A stretch of DNA of 38,640 nt from a virus (lineage: Duplodnaviria > Heunggongvirae > Uroviricota > Caudoviricetes): the IMG/VR virus record IMGVR_UViG_2671180892_000010; one strand, given 5' to 3'. Shown one piece after another: positions 2,798 through 35,125 of the stretch; position 1 is the stretch's first letter, and each line of letters starts with the position of its first letter. The notes beneath the pieces were generated by a model. The model did not search any database, was not told where the DNA came from, and was given only the letters and a program-made list of their open reading frames with translations. Both the position numbers and the translations under genes were made by a program.

Positions 2798-3397
2798 TCA
2801 GAACTTATAACCGACACCCACGATGAAACCGTCAGTGCGCCAGTCGCCACTGCCGGAGCCTTCATAAGCAATATCAATGGCCACGGATTCGGTCGGGTTA
2901 AACTGCACGCCAGCTCCCCACGCCAGAGACGTGTTGCTGTGGCGACCGTCATCACTTCCGGTCAGCACGTCGTGCGTTTTCCCCTTGTTGTCAGTTACGC
3001 GGAGATAATCCCCGGAGAAAGTCGACACACGGCTGTAAGCCACACCCGCCATCGCATACGCGCTGAACCATTCATTCACGCGCACAGACGGCCCCACCAT
3101 CACGCTGAACCAGCGGTTACGCACGGAATCTTCATGCCAGCGGGTATCGCTGTAACGGGTAAGCTGGCGATTCTTGTCTCCTGCATAGCTGAATGACGTC
3201 ACCAGCCCCAGTGTGTCCGTAAACTCATAACGGTATTTCACGTTAATCCCGTTAAGATCATCGCTGCCGGGAACGTTCGTCGAGGCATGAAGATACCCCG
3301 CGCTCAGCGTGGACTGATGTTCAGACGCCCATGCAGGCGCACCGGATACGGCCAGACAAATGGCTGCGGACAAAATTGCTGCACAAACTTTACGCAT
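2798..3397 (-). CDS. lom: Lom-like outer membrane protein (Ail/Lom family)
   Basis: 199 aa with signal peptide [24 protein letters not shown] and C-terminal ...VGVGYKF beta-barrel end; sits between J and stf as in lambda. Confidence 0.9.
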
Positions 3398-3467: not shown

Positions 3468-6400
3468 TCAACGAATACTGATGCCGGAAGCGGCTTTTTT
3501 GGTCACAATCACCGTACAGTCGGTGATATTGCCTGCCCCCTGATTGCCTTTCTGGAAAATCTTAAACTCCAGAGTGACGCTACCACCACCACTAGGCATA
3601 TCAATAACTGCACTGTAACTACCGGGAATGGCCCCTTTAGTTTCTCTGGATGCGATTAATACGCCGTTTTTGCGAACTTCAAAACCATAACCCGTGTATC
3701 GCGTGCCTCCTGGGTTATTTCCGCTCCCCGGATCGTCATACGCTATACCGTTAAAAATAATGGGCGGAATAATAATCTGGCGGTCAAAGTTATGATCATC
3801 GCTGATGGTGACTGTAACCGTACCGTTTGGTGTTTCCGTGTTACCCCACGTACCGACTTTTTTCGGGAAGGCTTTTGATACAGCTTTAACGAAATCCCCT
3901 CTGACCTGGGTCGCCTCCAGCATGCCCTTAATCGTACAGTTCTGGTTAATCGTGACATTGTTGAGCGTTCCTGAGTTCGCATTCACACTACCACTGATAT
4001 CCGCATTTTTAGCGGTCAGCTTTCCGTCTGATGTCAGGGAAAATACCGGAGGACTGCCACCGCTGGTAATGGTGGGGGCTGTCAGGCGCTTCAGGAACAC
4101 GTCGTTCATGAATATCTGGTTGCCCTGCGCCACAAACATCGGCGTTTCATTCCCGTTTGCCTGGTCAATAAACGCGATACGGTTAGCGGCAACCAGAAAC
4201 TGGCTCAGCTTGCCTTCCTCCGTGTCCTCCATGCTGAGGCCAATACCCGCGACATAATGTTTGCCGTCTTTGGTCTGCTCAATTTTGACGCCCCACATGG
4301 CATTCCATTTATCGTTAGCGTCCTTCCACTCTTTCGAAAACTCATCCAGTCTGCTGGCGTTATCCTCCGTCAGATCAACTTTTTCCAGCAGCTCTTTACC
4401 GAGATGGGATTCGGTTATCTGGCCTTTGAAAAAATCCAGGTAACCTTCCGCATCATCGCTCGCCCGACCGACGGCTTCCACGAATGCCGATTTGCCAACG
4501 GTGTTCACACTGCGAACGTAAAAATAATAATCATGGCCCGGTTTGATATTGATACTGGCGGCTATCCAGTACAGCGCCGTGCCAAGATAGCGGGCTGTGG
4601 TTTCAACCTGCCTGATATCCGTAATCCGCGTTTCCGAGAACCAGAACTCAAACTGTACCGTCGGATCATAAACCGCAAGATGCGGCGTGGCAGTTATCTG
4701 AAAATAGCCCGGCGTCAGCTCAATCCGCGACGGCGCTGCCGGGGCGGCAATCCGGAACGATACCGACGCCGGATCGCCCTGCTGTCCCCACACATTTACC
4801 GCCCGGACCGTCAGCGTGTAACGCCCCAGCGCCAGTTGCCTGAAGCGGTATGTGGTTTCCGTCGTCCGGGCCGTGCTGACCAGCCGCTCACTGCCGTCGT
4901 CCGCTGTTACGGTCAGACGGAGCAGGAAGCTCACCCCCTTCACCACCTTCGGCGTGTCCCAGCGCGCCAGCACCTGATATTCCCCGCTGTCTGCGGTGAC
5001 TTCGGCAGTCAGGTGCTGCACCGCTGGCGGTGTGACACCATTCACCGTGCCGCTCTGGTCGCCGTCAAAGTGCGCCCCGTTATCCACGATGGCCTCTTTT
5101 TCCGGTACATGCTGCACGGCGGTGATGGCATACGTGCCGTCATCGTTCTCACGAATACTCACGCAGCGGAACAGGCGCTGGCGCAGCGTCGGCAGCTTCA
5201 GCCCCCATACGCTGTATCCGGCAACGCCGTCAGGAACACGGCTCACTTTCACCTTCACGCCGTCGGTGACGGACTGGACCTCCACGCTGACCGGACTCCC
5301 CTGCCCGTCAACCAGGCTTATCAGCGTGGTACCGGAAGATGGCAGCGTGATTTCACGGTCGAGCGTCAGCGTCCGGGTCTGGCTGTTCACCGCCAGCACG
5401 CGCCCGCCGGTGCTGATACCGGCATAGTCATCATCGCAGATTTCAATGACATCGCCCGGTACATGGCGAAGCCCTTCAGCACCCACGCTGAAGTCCACGG
5501 TCTGCGTTTCCAGCAGCTCCGTTTTAATCAGCCACAGCCCGGCTCGGTGTGCCTGCCCCCGGCTGGTACAGCCAAAGGCATCCATCTTCGTGACGTTACG
5601 ACCGTAACGGGCAATGGCCTGCGAGTCCTCCACAAGCTCTGTTGCCGTCTCCCAGCCGTTATCCGGGTCAATCCAGTTCACCTCAACGGCATTATGGCGG
5701 TCTTTCAGGGCGCTGAAGCTGTAGCGGAACGGCGCGCCATCATCCGGCATCACCACATTACTGCGGTTATAGGTCCACACCTTATCCGACGGTCGGTCCT
5801 GCACGAACGTCAGCGTCTGCCCGTTCCATACCGGCATACAGCGCATCGCCGAGCAGAAATCACTGAGCACATCNNNNNNNNNNNNNNNNNNNNNNNNNNN
5901 NCTGGCCGATGACATACAGCGCCCATTTGTCCACATCCGCCGCACCAAGACGTTTCCCCATGCCGTAGCGTGGATGGGTCAGCATATCCCACAGACACCA
6001 GGCCATGTTGTTGCTGTATGCCGGTTTAAACGTTCCGTCCCAGATACCGCTGTATTGCCGCGTCTGCGGGTTATAATTCGACGGCACCTGCAGAATACGC
6101 CCGCGAAGATGATAATTACGGCTCACCTGCTGGCTGCCGAACTGTTCCGAGTCCACCTGCACGCCGACCAGTGCCGTGTTCGGGTAGCACTGTTTCACAT
6201 CGATGATTTCGGTGTATGACGACCAGAGCGTTTTGTTCTGCAGCTGGTCTGTGGTGCTGTCCGGTGTCATCCTGCGCATCCGGATATTGAACGGTCGCGG
6301 CGGCAGGTTATCCACCACCACCGAGGCCAGATACTGCGACGTGGTTTTGCCCTTAATGGTGATGTCTTTTTCTGTCACCCAGCCACCGTTACGTTGTATC

Positions 6401-31457: not shown

Positions 31458-31690
31458 GCTGCACCTCCGAGATGCTTCATGTTTTTTCCGGAGCGAAAGG
31501 CTATAAGCGGCATACTGACGCGGTAATTACGGCCCAGCGGTTCACAAATCACCTTCTGACATTCACGGTCAACCAGGCTGACACGTAGAACATGCCCTGC
31601 TGGCGTGGTGTACCACTGCCCAACTGTGGGTGTTGATATTTTTTTACGCTGAAATAAACGGTAAATGTTGAGGAGCAACGGATTAAGCAT
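31454..31690 (-). CDS. hypothetical protein, 78 aa
   Basis: ORF with start and stop overlapping both neighbours; no recognisable motifs. Confidence 0.4.
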   Translation of the reverse strand: MLNPLLLNIYRLFQRKKISTPTVGQWYTTPAGHVLRVSLVDRECQKVICEPLGRNYRVSMPLIAFRSGKNMKHLGGAA

Positions 31691-32519
31691 GACGATGCCC
31701 TCCGCTGATATTCAGGAGACGGTGAATATGAAAATTAGCCTTATCCGCCAGACGAATACGTTCAGCTTGCAAGTTAAGAAGGGTTTCTACCAGAACCTGA
31801 TGTGCCTGCGGATCCGAAAGAGTTACCTTGCGCAGAGCACGTAGTGCAGTTGTTACATAACTGAGTTTATGTAAGTCTTCATCATTCAGACGAGTGAGGG
31901 CTGGGACAGTAGCCATGATGGCAGCCTCCTTGATCGGTGAAATACTTCCACCACCGGAAACGCCAATTTCGCTGGTGGTGAACTGAACGGGGTTGGCGTA
32001 ACCGGTGATCAAGGAAACCGGCGCATCTTTCGATGCCCCCGCCCAGCCCACCATAACTTTGATGTGAGCAAATGCGGACGATAAAAAAGACGCTGGCGCG
32101 TCATATATCGCCTTGATCAATTCCAGGACGCCAATCCCGGCACCCGCTTTATAAGGTGCCTGAACAGTGTAACGTCCCGGAATGGCAGAATCAATGTGCT
32201 GGTGGTCCTTCACACTCAACAAAATCACGCCTGAATTTCCACAAAGGACTAAAGCACTCATGCGGGTAGTCTTTGCGAAGATAGATAACGCGCTGTGTTT
32301 CTGGCTCCCAACGAATAACATGAACATAAAGTCCTCTTCCGTCACGAAACCAGCGGTTAAGTTCCTGCACAACTCGCCCCCCACAGTCAGGTAAAGTTCT
32401 CTGTGGTTACTTACAGCCAGGTGATTTGGTAATCTGCATTCATGCCGTAACAACAGGTGTTCAGCGACGCTGACCACCAGCTGTTGCGACAAACGGTTAT
32501 TTGCCGTTAAACTGTTCAT
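31683..32519 (-). CDS. hypothetical protein, 278 aa, unknown function
   Basis: ATGA overlap with the upstream gene; Gly-rich segments (VLCGNSGVILLS, GAGIGVLELI, GVSGGGSIS) but no Walker A motif or other recognised catalytic motif. Confidence 0.5.
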   Translation of the reverse strand: MNSLTANNRLSQQLVVSVAEHLLLRHECRLPNHLAVSNHRELYLTVGGELCRNLTAGFVTEEDFMFMLFVGSQKHSALSIFAKTTRMSALVLCGNSGVILLSVKDHQHIDSAIPGRYTVQAPYKAGAGIGVLELIKAIYDAPASFLSSAFAHIKVMVGWAGASKDAPVSLITGYANPVQFTTSEIGVSGGGSISPIKEAAIMATVPALTRLNDEDLHKLSYVTTALRALRKVTLSDPQAHQVLVETLLNLQAERIRLADKANFHIHRLLNISGGHRHA

Positions 32520-33401: not shown

Positions 33402-34076
33402 ATGAAAACAGTCCATGACATCCGGCGGTCTAACGCCAGAAAACTGAGAGATGGTGTTGGCGGGAATTCTTCCTTTGCCACCATGATTGATCGCGAGCCA
33501 ACCCAGACCAGCAGGTTTATGGGAGATGGTGCTACTAAAAATATCGGTGACAGCATGGCACGGCACATCGAAAAATGTTTCGACCTGCCTGTCGGATGGC
33601 TTGATCAAGAACACCAGACAACAAACATCACAAAAAAACCTGATGTTTCAATTACTAACAAACAAATAACGTTAGTCCCTGTCATATCATGGGTACAGGC
33701 CGGAGCATGGAAAGAAGTTGGCTATTCTGAGGTTGATTTGAGCACAGCAGAAACTTATCCCTGCCCTGTACCCTGTGGCGAAATGACTTATATCTTGCGG
33801 GTGATTGGTGATTCAATGATTGATGAGTACCGCCCGGGAGACATGATTTTTGTAGATCCTGAAGTCCCTGCCTGCCACGGTGACGACGTTATTGCATTGA
33901 TGCACGATACAGGCGAAACCACCTTTAAGCGGTTGATAGAAGATGGAACACAGCGTTACCTCAAAGCATTAAACCCAAACTGGCCTGAACCTTACATTAA
34001 GATCAACGGTAATTGCTCTATAATTGGCACAGTAATTTTCTCAGGAAAACCAAGAAGATACAAAATAAAGGCCTAA
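33402..34076 (+). CDS. cI: CI-like prophage repressor (helix-turn-helix plus S24 LexA-like peptidase domain)
   Basis: 224 aa; C-terminal ...LRVIGDSMIDEYRPGDMIFVDPEVP... autocleavage domain; divergent from cro. Confidence 0.88.
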   Translation: MKTVHDIRRSNARKLRDGVGGNSSFATMIDREPTQTSRFMGDGATKNIGDSMARHIEKCFDLPVGWLDQEHQTTNITKKPDVSITNKQITLVPVISWVQAGAWKEVGYSEVDLSTAETYPCPVPCGEMTYILRVIGDSMIDEYRPGDMIFVDPEVPACHGDDVIALMHDTGETTFKRLIEDGTQRYLKALNPNWPEPYIKINGNCSIIGTVIFSGKPRRYKIKA

Positions 34077-34087
34077 TCAATATTTAT

Positions 34088-34110
34088 AACCTGCTTCGGC
34101 AGGTTTTTTT
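34088..34110 (+). terminator. intrinsic terminator after cI
   Basis: AACCTGC-TTCG-GCAGGTT followed by TTTTTTT (UUCG tetraloop). Confidence 0.85.
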
Positions 34111-34114
34111 ATAC

Positions 34115-34147
34115 TTGACAATGTACCCTTGAGATACATAATGTATC
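34115..34147 (+). promoter_or_regulatory. PL-like promoter with overlapping palindromic operator
   Basis: TTGACA (34115..34120), 16-nt spacer, CATAAT (34137..34142); perfect 15-bp palindrome GATACATAATGTATC (34133..34147) overlaps the -10. Confidence 0.6.
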
Positions 34148-34577
34148 TAAAAGAAACATGTCACAGGCAAGATTAAACAAAATTTGGTTGTAACACGGCG
34201 TATGGCACATGCGTCGTTAGCGGTCTGGGGACGTTAAAGGGGACAATCCACTCCTTGCTCGGGCAAACAAACCAGGTAGCCGGAATGTGCAAGTCAATGA
34301 TGATGCTGATAAGACGCCTAACCAGCGTGGCGATCCGGTTTGACGCCTGGGAAGAGACCAGGGTGCAACGATGAGGGCATTTATGGAGCCGCGACAAAGT
34401 GTGGTGCCGTAACTGGCTAAGTGCTCTCAGCGTTGTGGTGAATGCGCAGGCTGATGCGCGAAAGACATTGCAGCTAATGCGGAAAAGAGCTGTTCGGCGG
34501 GGCAATTAAACGCCCGAGAGAGTCTGAAATAACCGCAAGCCGGAGATCAGCACCGGTCACCACAACAGCCACTGCTT

Positions 34578-34626
34578 TGGCGGTACCAGTTTGTACACTT
34601 GCTTCCGGCTGGTACCGCTCTTTTTA
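34578..34626 (+). terminator. candidate intrinsic terminator (tL-like) upstream of the early-left genes
   Basis: 10-bp stem GCGGTACCAG / CTGGTACCGC with a 19-nt loop, followed by TCTTTTT. Confidence 0.5.
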
Positions 34627-34762
34627 CAAAACAGAGAAGAGCATCACCGGACGACGGGCTCATAACCCAATCCATCCGGGCTGCTGCCACCGCAGGTGTT
34701 CTTCTCTGTTTTGTGGAGAAACCAACCGACCTTGCAGGGTCGATATGATGAGGAGCAGCAAA

Positions 34763-35125
34763 ATGGCTAGCGAACGCAGTACTGATGTGCAGGCATTTAT
34801 CGGGGAGCTGGACGGCGGCGTATTTGAAACCAAAATCGGCGCAGTTCTCAGTGAAGTCGCTTCAGGTGTGATGAACACGAAAACCAAAGGTAAGGTCTCA
34901 CTCAACCTGGAAATCGAACCATTTGATGAGAACCGTGTGAAAATCAAACACAAACTCTCATATGTTCGCCCGACTAACCGCGGGAAAATTTCCGAAGAAG
35001 ACACCACCGAAACGCCGATGTATGTCAATCGCGGTGGTCGCCTGACTATTCTGCAGGAAGACCAGGGACAATTACTGACTCTTGCCGGTGAACCTGACGG
35101 AAAACTCCGCGCAGCAGGTCATTAA
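34763..35125 (+). CDS. hypothetical early protein (size and synteny consistent with YfdP)
   Basis: 120 aa from the ATG at 34763 (MASERSTDVQAFIGELDGGVF...), AGGAG RBS; the track ORF from 34577 is an in-frame extension through the terminator. Confidence 0.55.
   Translation: MASERSTDVQAFIGELDGGVFETKIGAVLSEVASGVMNTKTKGKVSLNLEIEPFDENRVKIKHKLSYVRPTNRGKISEEDTTETPMYVNRGGRLTILQEDQGQLLTLAGEPDGKLRAAGH

Follow-up and report, generated by a model that had tools for sequence, protein, structure and literature searches.

The leader that follows the PL-like promoter of an Escherichia coli lambdoid prophage carries a conserved, structured RNA core of about 245 nucleotides (nt), which belongs to a very widespread family for which we find no description in Rfam, RefSeq annotation, or the searchable literature. 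The prophage (IMG/VR record IMGVR_UViG_2671180892_000010) was analyzed as one stretch of 38,640 nt, referred to here as the window, which similarity searches identify as a lambdoid prophage of the mEp460/cdtI/Ayreon type. The leader spans about 480 nt (34148 to 34626); the core occupies positions 34191 to 34438 on the plus strand and is followed by a tRNA-derived domain (P6) and an intrinsic terminator, which together form the small RNA (sRNA) known as sRNA-17. We put at about 0.5 the probability that the stretch is an immediate-early RNA precursor that is cut at a tRNA-like junction into two stable, trans-acting RNAs. The support for this reading comes from covariation, the presence of the core in three unrelated settings, its coupling to tRNAs, its own terminator, and published 5′ and 3′ RNA ends.

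A first-pass annotation of this stretch, made from the letters alone, had described it as lacking open reading frames (ORFs) in a phage with no N homolog, and offered three explanations: a repressor-controlled noncoding RNA (ncRNA), an antitermination element of the HK022 put type, or a decayed N region. The first of these is borne out by the conserved structured family, by sRNA-17, and by prophage-repressor control in three lineages, and the other two are not supported by the comparisons described below.

Fold and covariation of the core RNA

The consensus fold, with five helices, was derived from a 20-sequence alignment, and covariation was counted over 49 pairs. The window matches the core at 34192 to 34438 (nhmmer, E = 7e-57), and its helices are P1 (34196 to 34216), P2 with a variable extension (34221 to 34282), P3 (34293 to 34331), P4 (34346 to 34362), and P5, which encloses a variable domain (34364 to 34437). 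A pseudoknot (34320 to 34323 with 34337 to 34340) was added to the fold later, after a hairpin loop and a strand 3′ of it were seen to switch perfectly between A-U and C-G. The variable hairpins change length freely among homologs, and the unpaired stretches between the core helices, GGUAGCCGGAAUGUGCAAG (34274 to 34292) and GAUACGGUGUGAC, are invariant.

Standard pairs are formed in 98.8% of the alignment cells over the 49 pairs, 17 of which have both-sided (compensatory) changes, and none of 500 shuffles reaches any of five pairing measures; when partners are slid by 1 to 3 columns as a control, 31 to 45% of cells are paired. Over 76 nonredundant homologs, the 32 core pairs, with the pseudoknot included, are 97.3% paired, and compensatory changes are again seen in 17 of them. 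In homolog L261, the pseudoknot strands CACC/GGUG are rewritten as GGUC/GACC. Thermodynamic stability alone is uninformative (z = -1.7 for the leader as a whole, whichever strand is folded, and -2.0 for the core); the case for an RNA rests on covariation. Of the two comparisons proposed by the first-pass annotation, that of compensatory changes across relatives gives the counts above; in that of the leader with Rfam covariance models, no Rfam 15 model matches at its gathering score, with nothing relevant at E values up to 10, whether among riboswitches, ribozymes, sRNAs, GOLLD and ROOL, Y RNA, or transfer-messenger RNA (tmRNA). Among 12 divergent homologous loci, Rfam reports only flanking tRNAs and one unrelated int-alpA match.

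A few observations concern the build of the core. The motif UYCCUUGA recurs in the loops of P2 extensions (e.g., L128, L133, and L145) and in the terminator loops of Uetakevirus-type units (L042 and L140). Locus L171 has two core copies (at 4156 and 4961), separated by about 800 nt and including a degenerate one; the flanks of L141 and L131 contain extra partial P4-P5-like modules; and in L134 a P6-like domain has its 3′ end immediately before the core; we regard these as signs of a modular or tandem build. A boxA-like GCUCUU in the 3′ strand of P5 was considered as a NusB/E site and rejected, as the strand covaries as a helix and differs in L024, L131, and L153.

The view that the stretch contains no real ORF also holds. 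Plus-strand ORFs within it are only 20 to 39 amino acids (aa), its only sizeable ORF is on the minus strand (110 aa, TTG start, 34173 to 34505), stop-free minus-strand runs reach 82 codons, and a PHROG search matches no family to any ORF of the stretch (no large protein-database search was made). A protein-coding frame conserved across homologous prophages, which the first-pass annotation had named as the sign that would speak against an ncRNA, was looked for through the spacing of conserved blocks, and the spacings cover all three mod-3 classes, so that there is no common frame on either strand. That the stretch is a decayed N/nutL region or an overlooked small protein gene is therefore almost certainly wrong, even though it fills the N slot and hypothetical proteins are annotated over it in some phage records: conservation tracks helices rather than codons, the element is found beyond lambdoid phages too, and the strong purifying selection on RNA structure, with coding signal absent, is not that of a decayed N region. 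No N-like gene is present among the genes 3′ of the leader (coding for YfdP, YfdQ, an HD hydrolase, and a DUF551 protein), and the whole window was not scanned for N. Hypothetical coding sequences are annotated in L002 (3156 to 3275 and 3377 to 3571), L129 (2511 to 2753), L126 (2601 to 2762), and L004 (2748 to 2999); these, which lie over the RNA in Ayreon, mEp390, and Tyrion and over an unannotated tRNA-Arg in phiV10 (p04), seem spurious.

Distribution in three phage lineages and repressor control

Of the 5426 complete E. coli genomes, 1834 carry the core, a single genome having as many as 4 copies, and it is also found in 593 plasmids; among the matches listed, none has RefSeq annotation over the core. 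It occurs at 77 to 83% identity in contexts that are otherwise unrelated. An exact 19-mer, GGTAGCCGGAATGTGCAAG, is found at 22 genuine loci in species-representative genomes, the hosts being Escherichia, Citrobacter, Klebsiella, Enterobacter, Kosakonia, Phytobacter, Kluyvera, Buttiauxella, Superficieibacter, Pseudescherichia, Pseudocitrobacter, and Erwinia.

Three unrelated lineages of temperate phages carry the core, always on the early sense strand. The first includes lambdoid phages and prophages of differing immunity (mEp390, Ayreon, and Kosakonia prophages), in which the core lies straight after cI and PL. The second includes phages P1, P7, D6, and SJ46 and P1-like plasmids, with the core located in the ban operon between tRNA-Ile(CAU) (trnI) and ban; by annotation, the phage P1 ban operon is driven by the C1-controlled promoter Pban. 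Phage P1 itself retains only helices P1 to P4 (L003, 3011 to 3187, corresponding to about 71020 to 71196 of NC_005856) within a 286-nt unannotated gap between trnI and ban, and has lost P5 and P6. The P1-like plasmids (L024 and L037) keep P5 and P6, have three extra ORFs ahead of ban, and lack a terminator after the core. The third lineage is composed of the Uetakeviruses phiV10, TL-2011b, SPN1S, Tyrion, and BUCT711, in which the core is a stand-alone unit that lies on the opposite strand, with portal-side genes to one side and terL to the other. In Tyrion (L126), an Rfam int-alpA RNA match (3598 to 3662, 44 bits) lies about 900 nt 3′ of the element.

The window promoter is well placed for repressor control. 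The cI-type repressor gene (33402 to 34076) codes for a LexA-like protein with a Peptidase_S24 domain, and its transcript is closed by an intrinsic terminator on the plus strand (34088 to 34112) found by a terminator scan, with a 7-bp stem (34088 to 34105) followed by a T-run. Next is the PL-like sigma-70 promoter (34115 to 34142, plus strand), with TTGACA at 34115 and CATAAT at 34142 separated by N16, which scores 11/12 in a promoter scan, in keeping with its earlier description as strong. It had also been described as overlapped by a perfect palindromic operator; the palindrome is real, but it represents the junction of two adjoining 19-bp inverted-repeat operators, ATGTACCCTTGAGATACAT (34121 to 34139) and ATGTATCTAAAAGAAACAT (34141 to 34159), with no strand assigned to either. 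Exact TGTA-N9-TACA occurs at just three sites in the 38.6-kb window, 33318 and 33368 in the cI/cro intergenic region and 34122 at the PL-like promoter, and because these sites are limited to the cI/cro region and the promoter, the latter is a repressor-controlled PL.

A similar arrangement is seen in SPN1S (L155), where the promoter of the unit is overlapped by TTACCTAAAAGGTAA, a member of a TTACC-N5-GGTAA palindrome family with 18 sites in the genome versus 0.66 expected, clustered on both sides of the repressor gene. These sites include those at 3203 to 3217, 33554 to 33706, and 34416 to 34477, and others lie upstream of int and of a moron; the palindrome resembles the ACCT-N-AGGT sites of MqsA-type regulators. 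With repressor control in the window, phage P1, and SPN1S, the core is therefore an immediate-early lytic product wherever it is found.

The P6 domain, tRNA coupling, and sRNA-17

The conserved 3′ end of the core, GUUGUGG, is also the 5′ strand of the helix that follows it. Of the 275 copies fetched, 45 have a true tRNA-Arg(UCU) that begins right at the conserved GUGG, and 28 (P1-type) have a tRNA(CAU) that ends 9 to 12 nt 5′ of the core; by established tRNA biogenesis, maturation must sever the core from its neighbor in these tRNA-flanked loci. In the window the position is taken by P6, which is composed of a closing helix of 10 bp formed by an inverted repeat (GUUGUGGUGA, 34432 to 34441, with UCACCACAAC, 34557 to 34566), a D-like hairpin, and a T-like hairpin. 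Read by eye, variants suggest that these elements covary: the closing helix changes to GUUGUGA/UCACAAC in L136, the D-like hairpin changes from GCGC/GCGC to GCCC/GGGC in L145, and the T-like hairpin changes from CCGG...CCGG to CUGG...CCAG in L134, whereas in L139 and L131 it is a canonical T-arm, GGUUCGAnUCC. A scan of the window with ARAGORN yields neither a tRNA nor a tmRNA, and the Rfam tRNA model has no match in the leader at E values up to 10. The outer P5 pairs (GUUGUG) share bases with the start of the acceptor-like helix of the tRNA or P6, giving competing pairings, and several variable domains contain T-loop-like motifs. A tmRNA-like tag frame in P6 was also considered and dropped, since by eye it is not conserved among the variants.

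P6 and the terminator have been described previously as sRNA-17, an sRNA linked to blood survival in meningitis E. coli and detected as a 193-nt RNA in the mEp460-like prophage of E. coli K1 strain RS218 by rapid amplification of cDNA ends (RACE) and Northern blotting, and reported to have no Rfam match (PMC7719688). The full-length primers of that study map to 34431 to 34463 (plus strand) and 34593 to 34624 (minus strand) without mismatches, placing sRNA-17 at 34431 to 34624 on the plus strand, and the RACE primers and Northern probe map with 0 to 1 mismatch, antisense to the plus strand. The published 5′ end (34431) thus falls at the junction of the core and P6. The fragment used as the sRNA-17 promoter in an electrophoretic mobility shift assay (EMSA) corresponds to 34182 to 34431, which is the core RNA, and the quantitative reverse transcription-PCR amplicon corresponds to 34182 to 34577 and covers both core and P6, which places the two on one transcript (PMC7719688).

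The terminator (34579 to 34626, plus strand) is identified by its inverted repeat, its fold, and the published 3′ end. It has a 13-bp stem (34579 to 34619, with perfect arms at 34580 to 34589 and 34609 to 34618) and a U-run (34620 to 34626), which matches the stem-loop and T-run noted in the first pass at 34578 to 34626. With the primers mapped, published 3′ RACE puts the RNA end at this terminator, showing that it is functional in vivo (PMC7719688). The lambdoid and Uetakevirus units each carry their own terminator, with the shared start UUGGCGG.

The suggestion that the element is undescribed stands in part. The 245-nt core is new to Rfam, RefSeq annotation, and the searchable literature (searches by topic, covering prophage tRNA-like ncRNA, yfdP ncRNA, and the leader of P1 ban, and by literal sequence turn up no description of it), but the 3′ third of the stretch has been published as sRNA-17. 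The Pas sRNAs and the anti-sRNAs of enterohemorrhagic E. coli were considered as identities and rejected, as they occupy other prophage positions. The sequence CACCACAACA (34558 to 34566), 3′ of the tRNA-like domain, is conserved in nearly all variants and includes CACAACA, which has been reported as the consensus of the GcvB seed target for AgvB, a prophage anti-sRNA (PMC4104026); its relevance to GcvB is doubtful because it is paired within helix P6.

A proposed precursor and its processing

In the proposed scheme, the repressor would leave its operators and the PL-like promoter would make a precursor of about 480 nt ending at the terminator (34579 to 34626). The precursor would consist of two modules, the core (34191 to 34438) and the tRNA-derived domain with the terminator (sRNA-17, 34431 to 34624), and the tRNA or tRNA-like module would serve as a processing handle. 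Cleavage at ...CAG|CGUU|GUGG, most likely of the type that RNase P performs in tRNA 5′ maturation, would free both a core with its 3′ end tucked into P5 and sRNA-17 with its terminator hairpin. The neighboring genes differ entirely across the three lineages; the freed core, if stable, would therefore most likely act on a conserved component of the host, in trans, with RNA polymerase, a tRNA-directed enzyme, and a defense nuclease as candidates. A fuller form of this proposal, which we hold tentatively and at somewhat short of even odds, is that large phage RNAs with a pseudoknot include a class not seen before, represented by the core: the first lytic product in three lineages including phage P1, it would be freed by host tRNA-processing enzymes and function as a trans-acting RNA machine or decoy against a conserved host target (RNA polymerase, a tRNA-directed enzyme, or a defense nuclease that cleaves tRNA, for example), rather than as an antiterminator, a riboswitch, or a base-pairing sRNA.

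Several points weigh against the precursor scheme. The published Northern probe spans only P6, so that a discrete core species is predicted rather than directly detected. The 5′ end at 34431 could be the start site of an overlooked internal promoter, as the sRNA-17 authors assumed; this objection is weakened because the promoter scan finds no sigma-70 promoter at 34431 or inside the core. P6 is recognized as a tRNA by neither ARAGORN nor the Rfam tRNA model, and RNase P cleavage at P6 is not assured because its closing helix is 10 bp, not 7. The loss of P5 and P6 from phage P1, which has only P1 to P4 of the core, is also at odds with the scheme, and there is no phenotype to lean on in that phage, as its ban operon is dispensable in the laboratory in CRISPR interference screens (PMC10695390). 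From that dispensability, we take the function of the core to be accessory.

Alternative explanations

Among readings that place the function in cis, the core could be a structured 5′ leader for maturation or expression of the adjacent tRNA-Arg or sRNA-17, functionless once cut. In most loci it does end exactly at the tRNA +1 position or the P6 helix, and both the competition of the outer P5 pairs with the acceptor-like helix and the T-loop-like motifs of several variable domains are in accord with such a role; however, phage P1 retains the core without a downstream tRNA or P6, core-less phages make the P6 module directly from PL, and an invariant pseudoknotted fold of 245 nt far exceeds the needs of known tRNA leaders, which makes this improbable. 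A riboswitch-type attenuator, in which a small ligand bound by the core would determine the stopping rate at the downstream terminator, is less probable still. The aptamer-like pseudoknot, invariant unpaired bases, 5′ position, and a terminator to the 3′ side would suit it, but no Rfam riboswitch matches even at E values up to 10, some 140 nt with the whole tRNA/P6 domain separate the end of the core (34438) from the terminator (34579), no alternative pairing of core and terminator is found, with the 3′ strand of the core not competing with the terminator stem, and P1-type copies have no terminator at all. The published view, in which 34182 to 34431 serves an independent sRNA-17 gene as its promoter and as the region bound by ArcA, and is conserved as DNA, draws on the shift of this fragment by ArcA-P in EMSA and a 3-fold higher sRNA-17 signal in an arcA mutant (PMC7719688). 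It is very hard to reconcile with the compensatory base-pair changes, which reflect selection at the RNA level, with the authors' own amplicon, which starts at 34182 and so has the promoter transcribed together with P6, with the promoter scan, which finds no sigma-70 site inside the fragment, and with the retention of the sequence in phage P1 and the Uetakeviruses, where sRNA-17 does not follow.

The likeliest of the alternatives is that the core is a cis-acting processive antiterminator, either a functional analogue or a very distant relative of the HK022/HK639 put RNA, such that the nascent core would bind RNA polymerase and promote read-through of the terminator (34579 to 34626) into yfdP and the early-left operon, replacing N. 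The position argues for it: the core is the first element transcribed from PL, in the putL slot, in lambdoid phages without N, a terminator follows, the promoter scan detects no promoter ahead of yfdP, and genes lie 3′ of the element in the Uetakeviruses and phage P1 too. A put-like RNA has been speculated for relatives of this phage type (PMC12315714). There is also some local resemblance, as hairpin P1 (CGGCGUAUG-GCA-CAUGCGUCG) has CGGCG and the 9-mer CAUGCGUCG in common with put stem I, and AGCGGU...GCCGGAAUG resembles GGCGGG...CGGCAAUG of put, the strand that contacts the polymerase (PMC9378689). However, a covariance model built from eight put RNAs, which scores 53 to 96 bits on HK022 putL and putR and HK639 putL, gives no match at the element in 22 loci and reaches 0.1 bit (E = 2.2) at 34196 to 34216 with filters off. 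The reverse search with the element profile in nhmmer has no match in HK639, and in HK022 its one match is a chance similarity of 16 nt within nun. The essential put residue G35 is missing, and the architecture differs, so the put-type identity offered by the first-pass annotation is not sustained. Nor does the window have a second core copy, in the PR operon or elsewhere, the nhmmer match being the single significant one, although HK639 likewise has only a putL-like site, so a missing putR copy is not strictly defining. In RS218, which bears the core, RNAs end at the terminator (PMC7719688), and phage Lys8385Vzw and prophage L163, which lack the core, retain the P6 domain, the terminator, and the yfdP operon; both findings weaken a put-like function. 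Antitermination also leaves the terminator and the tRNA adjacency of the module unexplained, and the Uetakevirus unit is self-contained. On balance we consider it unlikely, and the trans-acting precursor remains the reading that we prefer.

The long hairpin and the early-left operon

Between the terminator and the ribosome-binding site (RBS) of yfdP is a very stable long hairpin formed by an inverted repeat (34621 to 34719, plus strand; z = -7.0, with none of 200 shuffles equal). Its arms are at 34626 to 34650 and 34690 to 34714, and the 5′ arm begins in the U-run of the terminator. It is a possible candidate for an RNase III-type processing site on read-through transcripts. The first early-left gene (34763 to 35125, plus strand), with the RBS GAGGAG at 34750 to 34755, is yfdP-like as the first-pass annotation had it (phrog_204, E = 1e-49), is annotated as yfdP in relatives, and is followed by genes coding for YfdQ/DUF2303, an HD hydrolase, and a DUF551 protein.

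The module of terminator, hairpin, and yfdP occurs in more genomes than the core. In the core-less relatives, prophage L163 and the complete phage Lys8385Vzw, PL is joined straight to P6, and the terminator and yfdP operon are kept. The coordinates in core-less relatives are 2460 to 2660 in L163, 1378 to 1852 in L164, and 1430 to 2560 in L162, the last of which has a decayed stub of the 5′ core, followed by inserted ORFs (one of them ClpX zinc-finger-like) and a different P6-like domain.

Elsewhere in the window, the C4 antisense RNA model matches at 31971 to 32058 (82 bits) and isrK matches at 32083 to 32159 (64 bits), both on the minus strand and scored against the Rfam gathering threshold. 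The two lie in the 5′ part of a minus-strand ORF (31683 to 32519) with an Ash-family product, and the region looks like a P1-immI-type antisense-RNA module in a lambdoid PR operon.

Relationship to known systems

The core shares with the put RNAs of HK022, HK75, and HK639 its position at the start of PL in N-less lambdoid phages, as well as a short stretch of similar sequence in the first hairpin and in the GCGG...CGG(C)AAUG pair of strands. The put RNAs act in cis, promoting read-through of terminators 3′ of them in a manner that depends on the beta-prime zinc-binding domain. They have two stems in about 70 nt (126 nt in HK639), whereas the core has five helices and a pseudoknot in about 245 nt and does not match the put consensus invariants GAACGGC...GUCGG...GGCGGG...CAAU; HK022 has both putL and putR, whereas the window has a single core copy. 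Unlike put, the core element is also found in phage P1 and the Uetakeviruses, adjoins tRNAs, and brings its own terminator. Lambda nutL-N occupies the same slot between PL and the early-left genes, but the stretch has a conserved RNA fold in place of a boxA/boxB site (no formal boxA/boxB search was made) and no N-like gene. The core makes testable how N-less lambdoid phages of the yfdP/ST64B/LLS type cope with a terminator after PL.

sRNA-17 is the same locus as 34431 to 34624 of the window only and does not include the core. The upstream 250 bp that the sRNA-17 study treated as a promoter is the conserved structured core RNA, and that study recognized neither the core nor its placement under PL and the repressor, its relationship to tRNAs, or its homologs in phage P1 and the Uetakeviruses. 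The published model is thereby corrected, the supposed promoter being a co-transcribed conserved structured RNA. The E. coli, lambdoid, and P1 systems are intensely studied, and yet a 245-nt pseudoknotted RNA supported by covariation has gone unannotated in about one-third of complete E. coli genomes and in some 600 P1-like plasmids.

Phage ncRNAs associated with tRNA processing offer the closest parallels for the proposed release of the core. The C4 antisense RNA of P1 and P7 is 77 nt, has a known target, and is matured by RNase P, and species 1 and 2 RNAs of T4 are 120 to 140 nt and are excised from a tRNA precursor; we know of no function for the T4 RNAs. As with these, the core is a phage ncRNA co-transcribed with a tRNA or tRNA-like element, with which it shares a transcription unit and at whose boundaries it ends; in the C4 and T4 RNAs, it is host tRNA-processing enzymes that define the ends. 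The core is unrelated to either in sequence or structure, and the C4 homolog of the window lies elsewhere. The locus would offer a bacterial system in which tRNA-guided release of a structured ncRNA is amenable to study, and if the core does target a host machine or defense system, it would represent a novel type of early phage weapon consisting of RNA alone. A further comparison is with GOLLD and ROOL, which are 500 to 800 nt, occur mainly in Firmicutes, are often tRNA-adjacent, and to our knowledge have no known function. Like GOLLD and ROOL, the core is large, elaborately folded, prophage-borne, and frequently adjacent to tRNAs; unlike them, as both are in Rfam, it matches no Rfam model.

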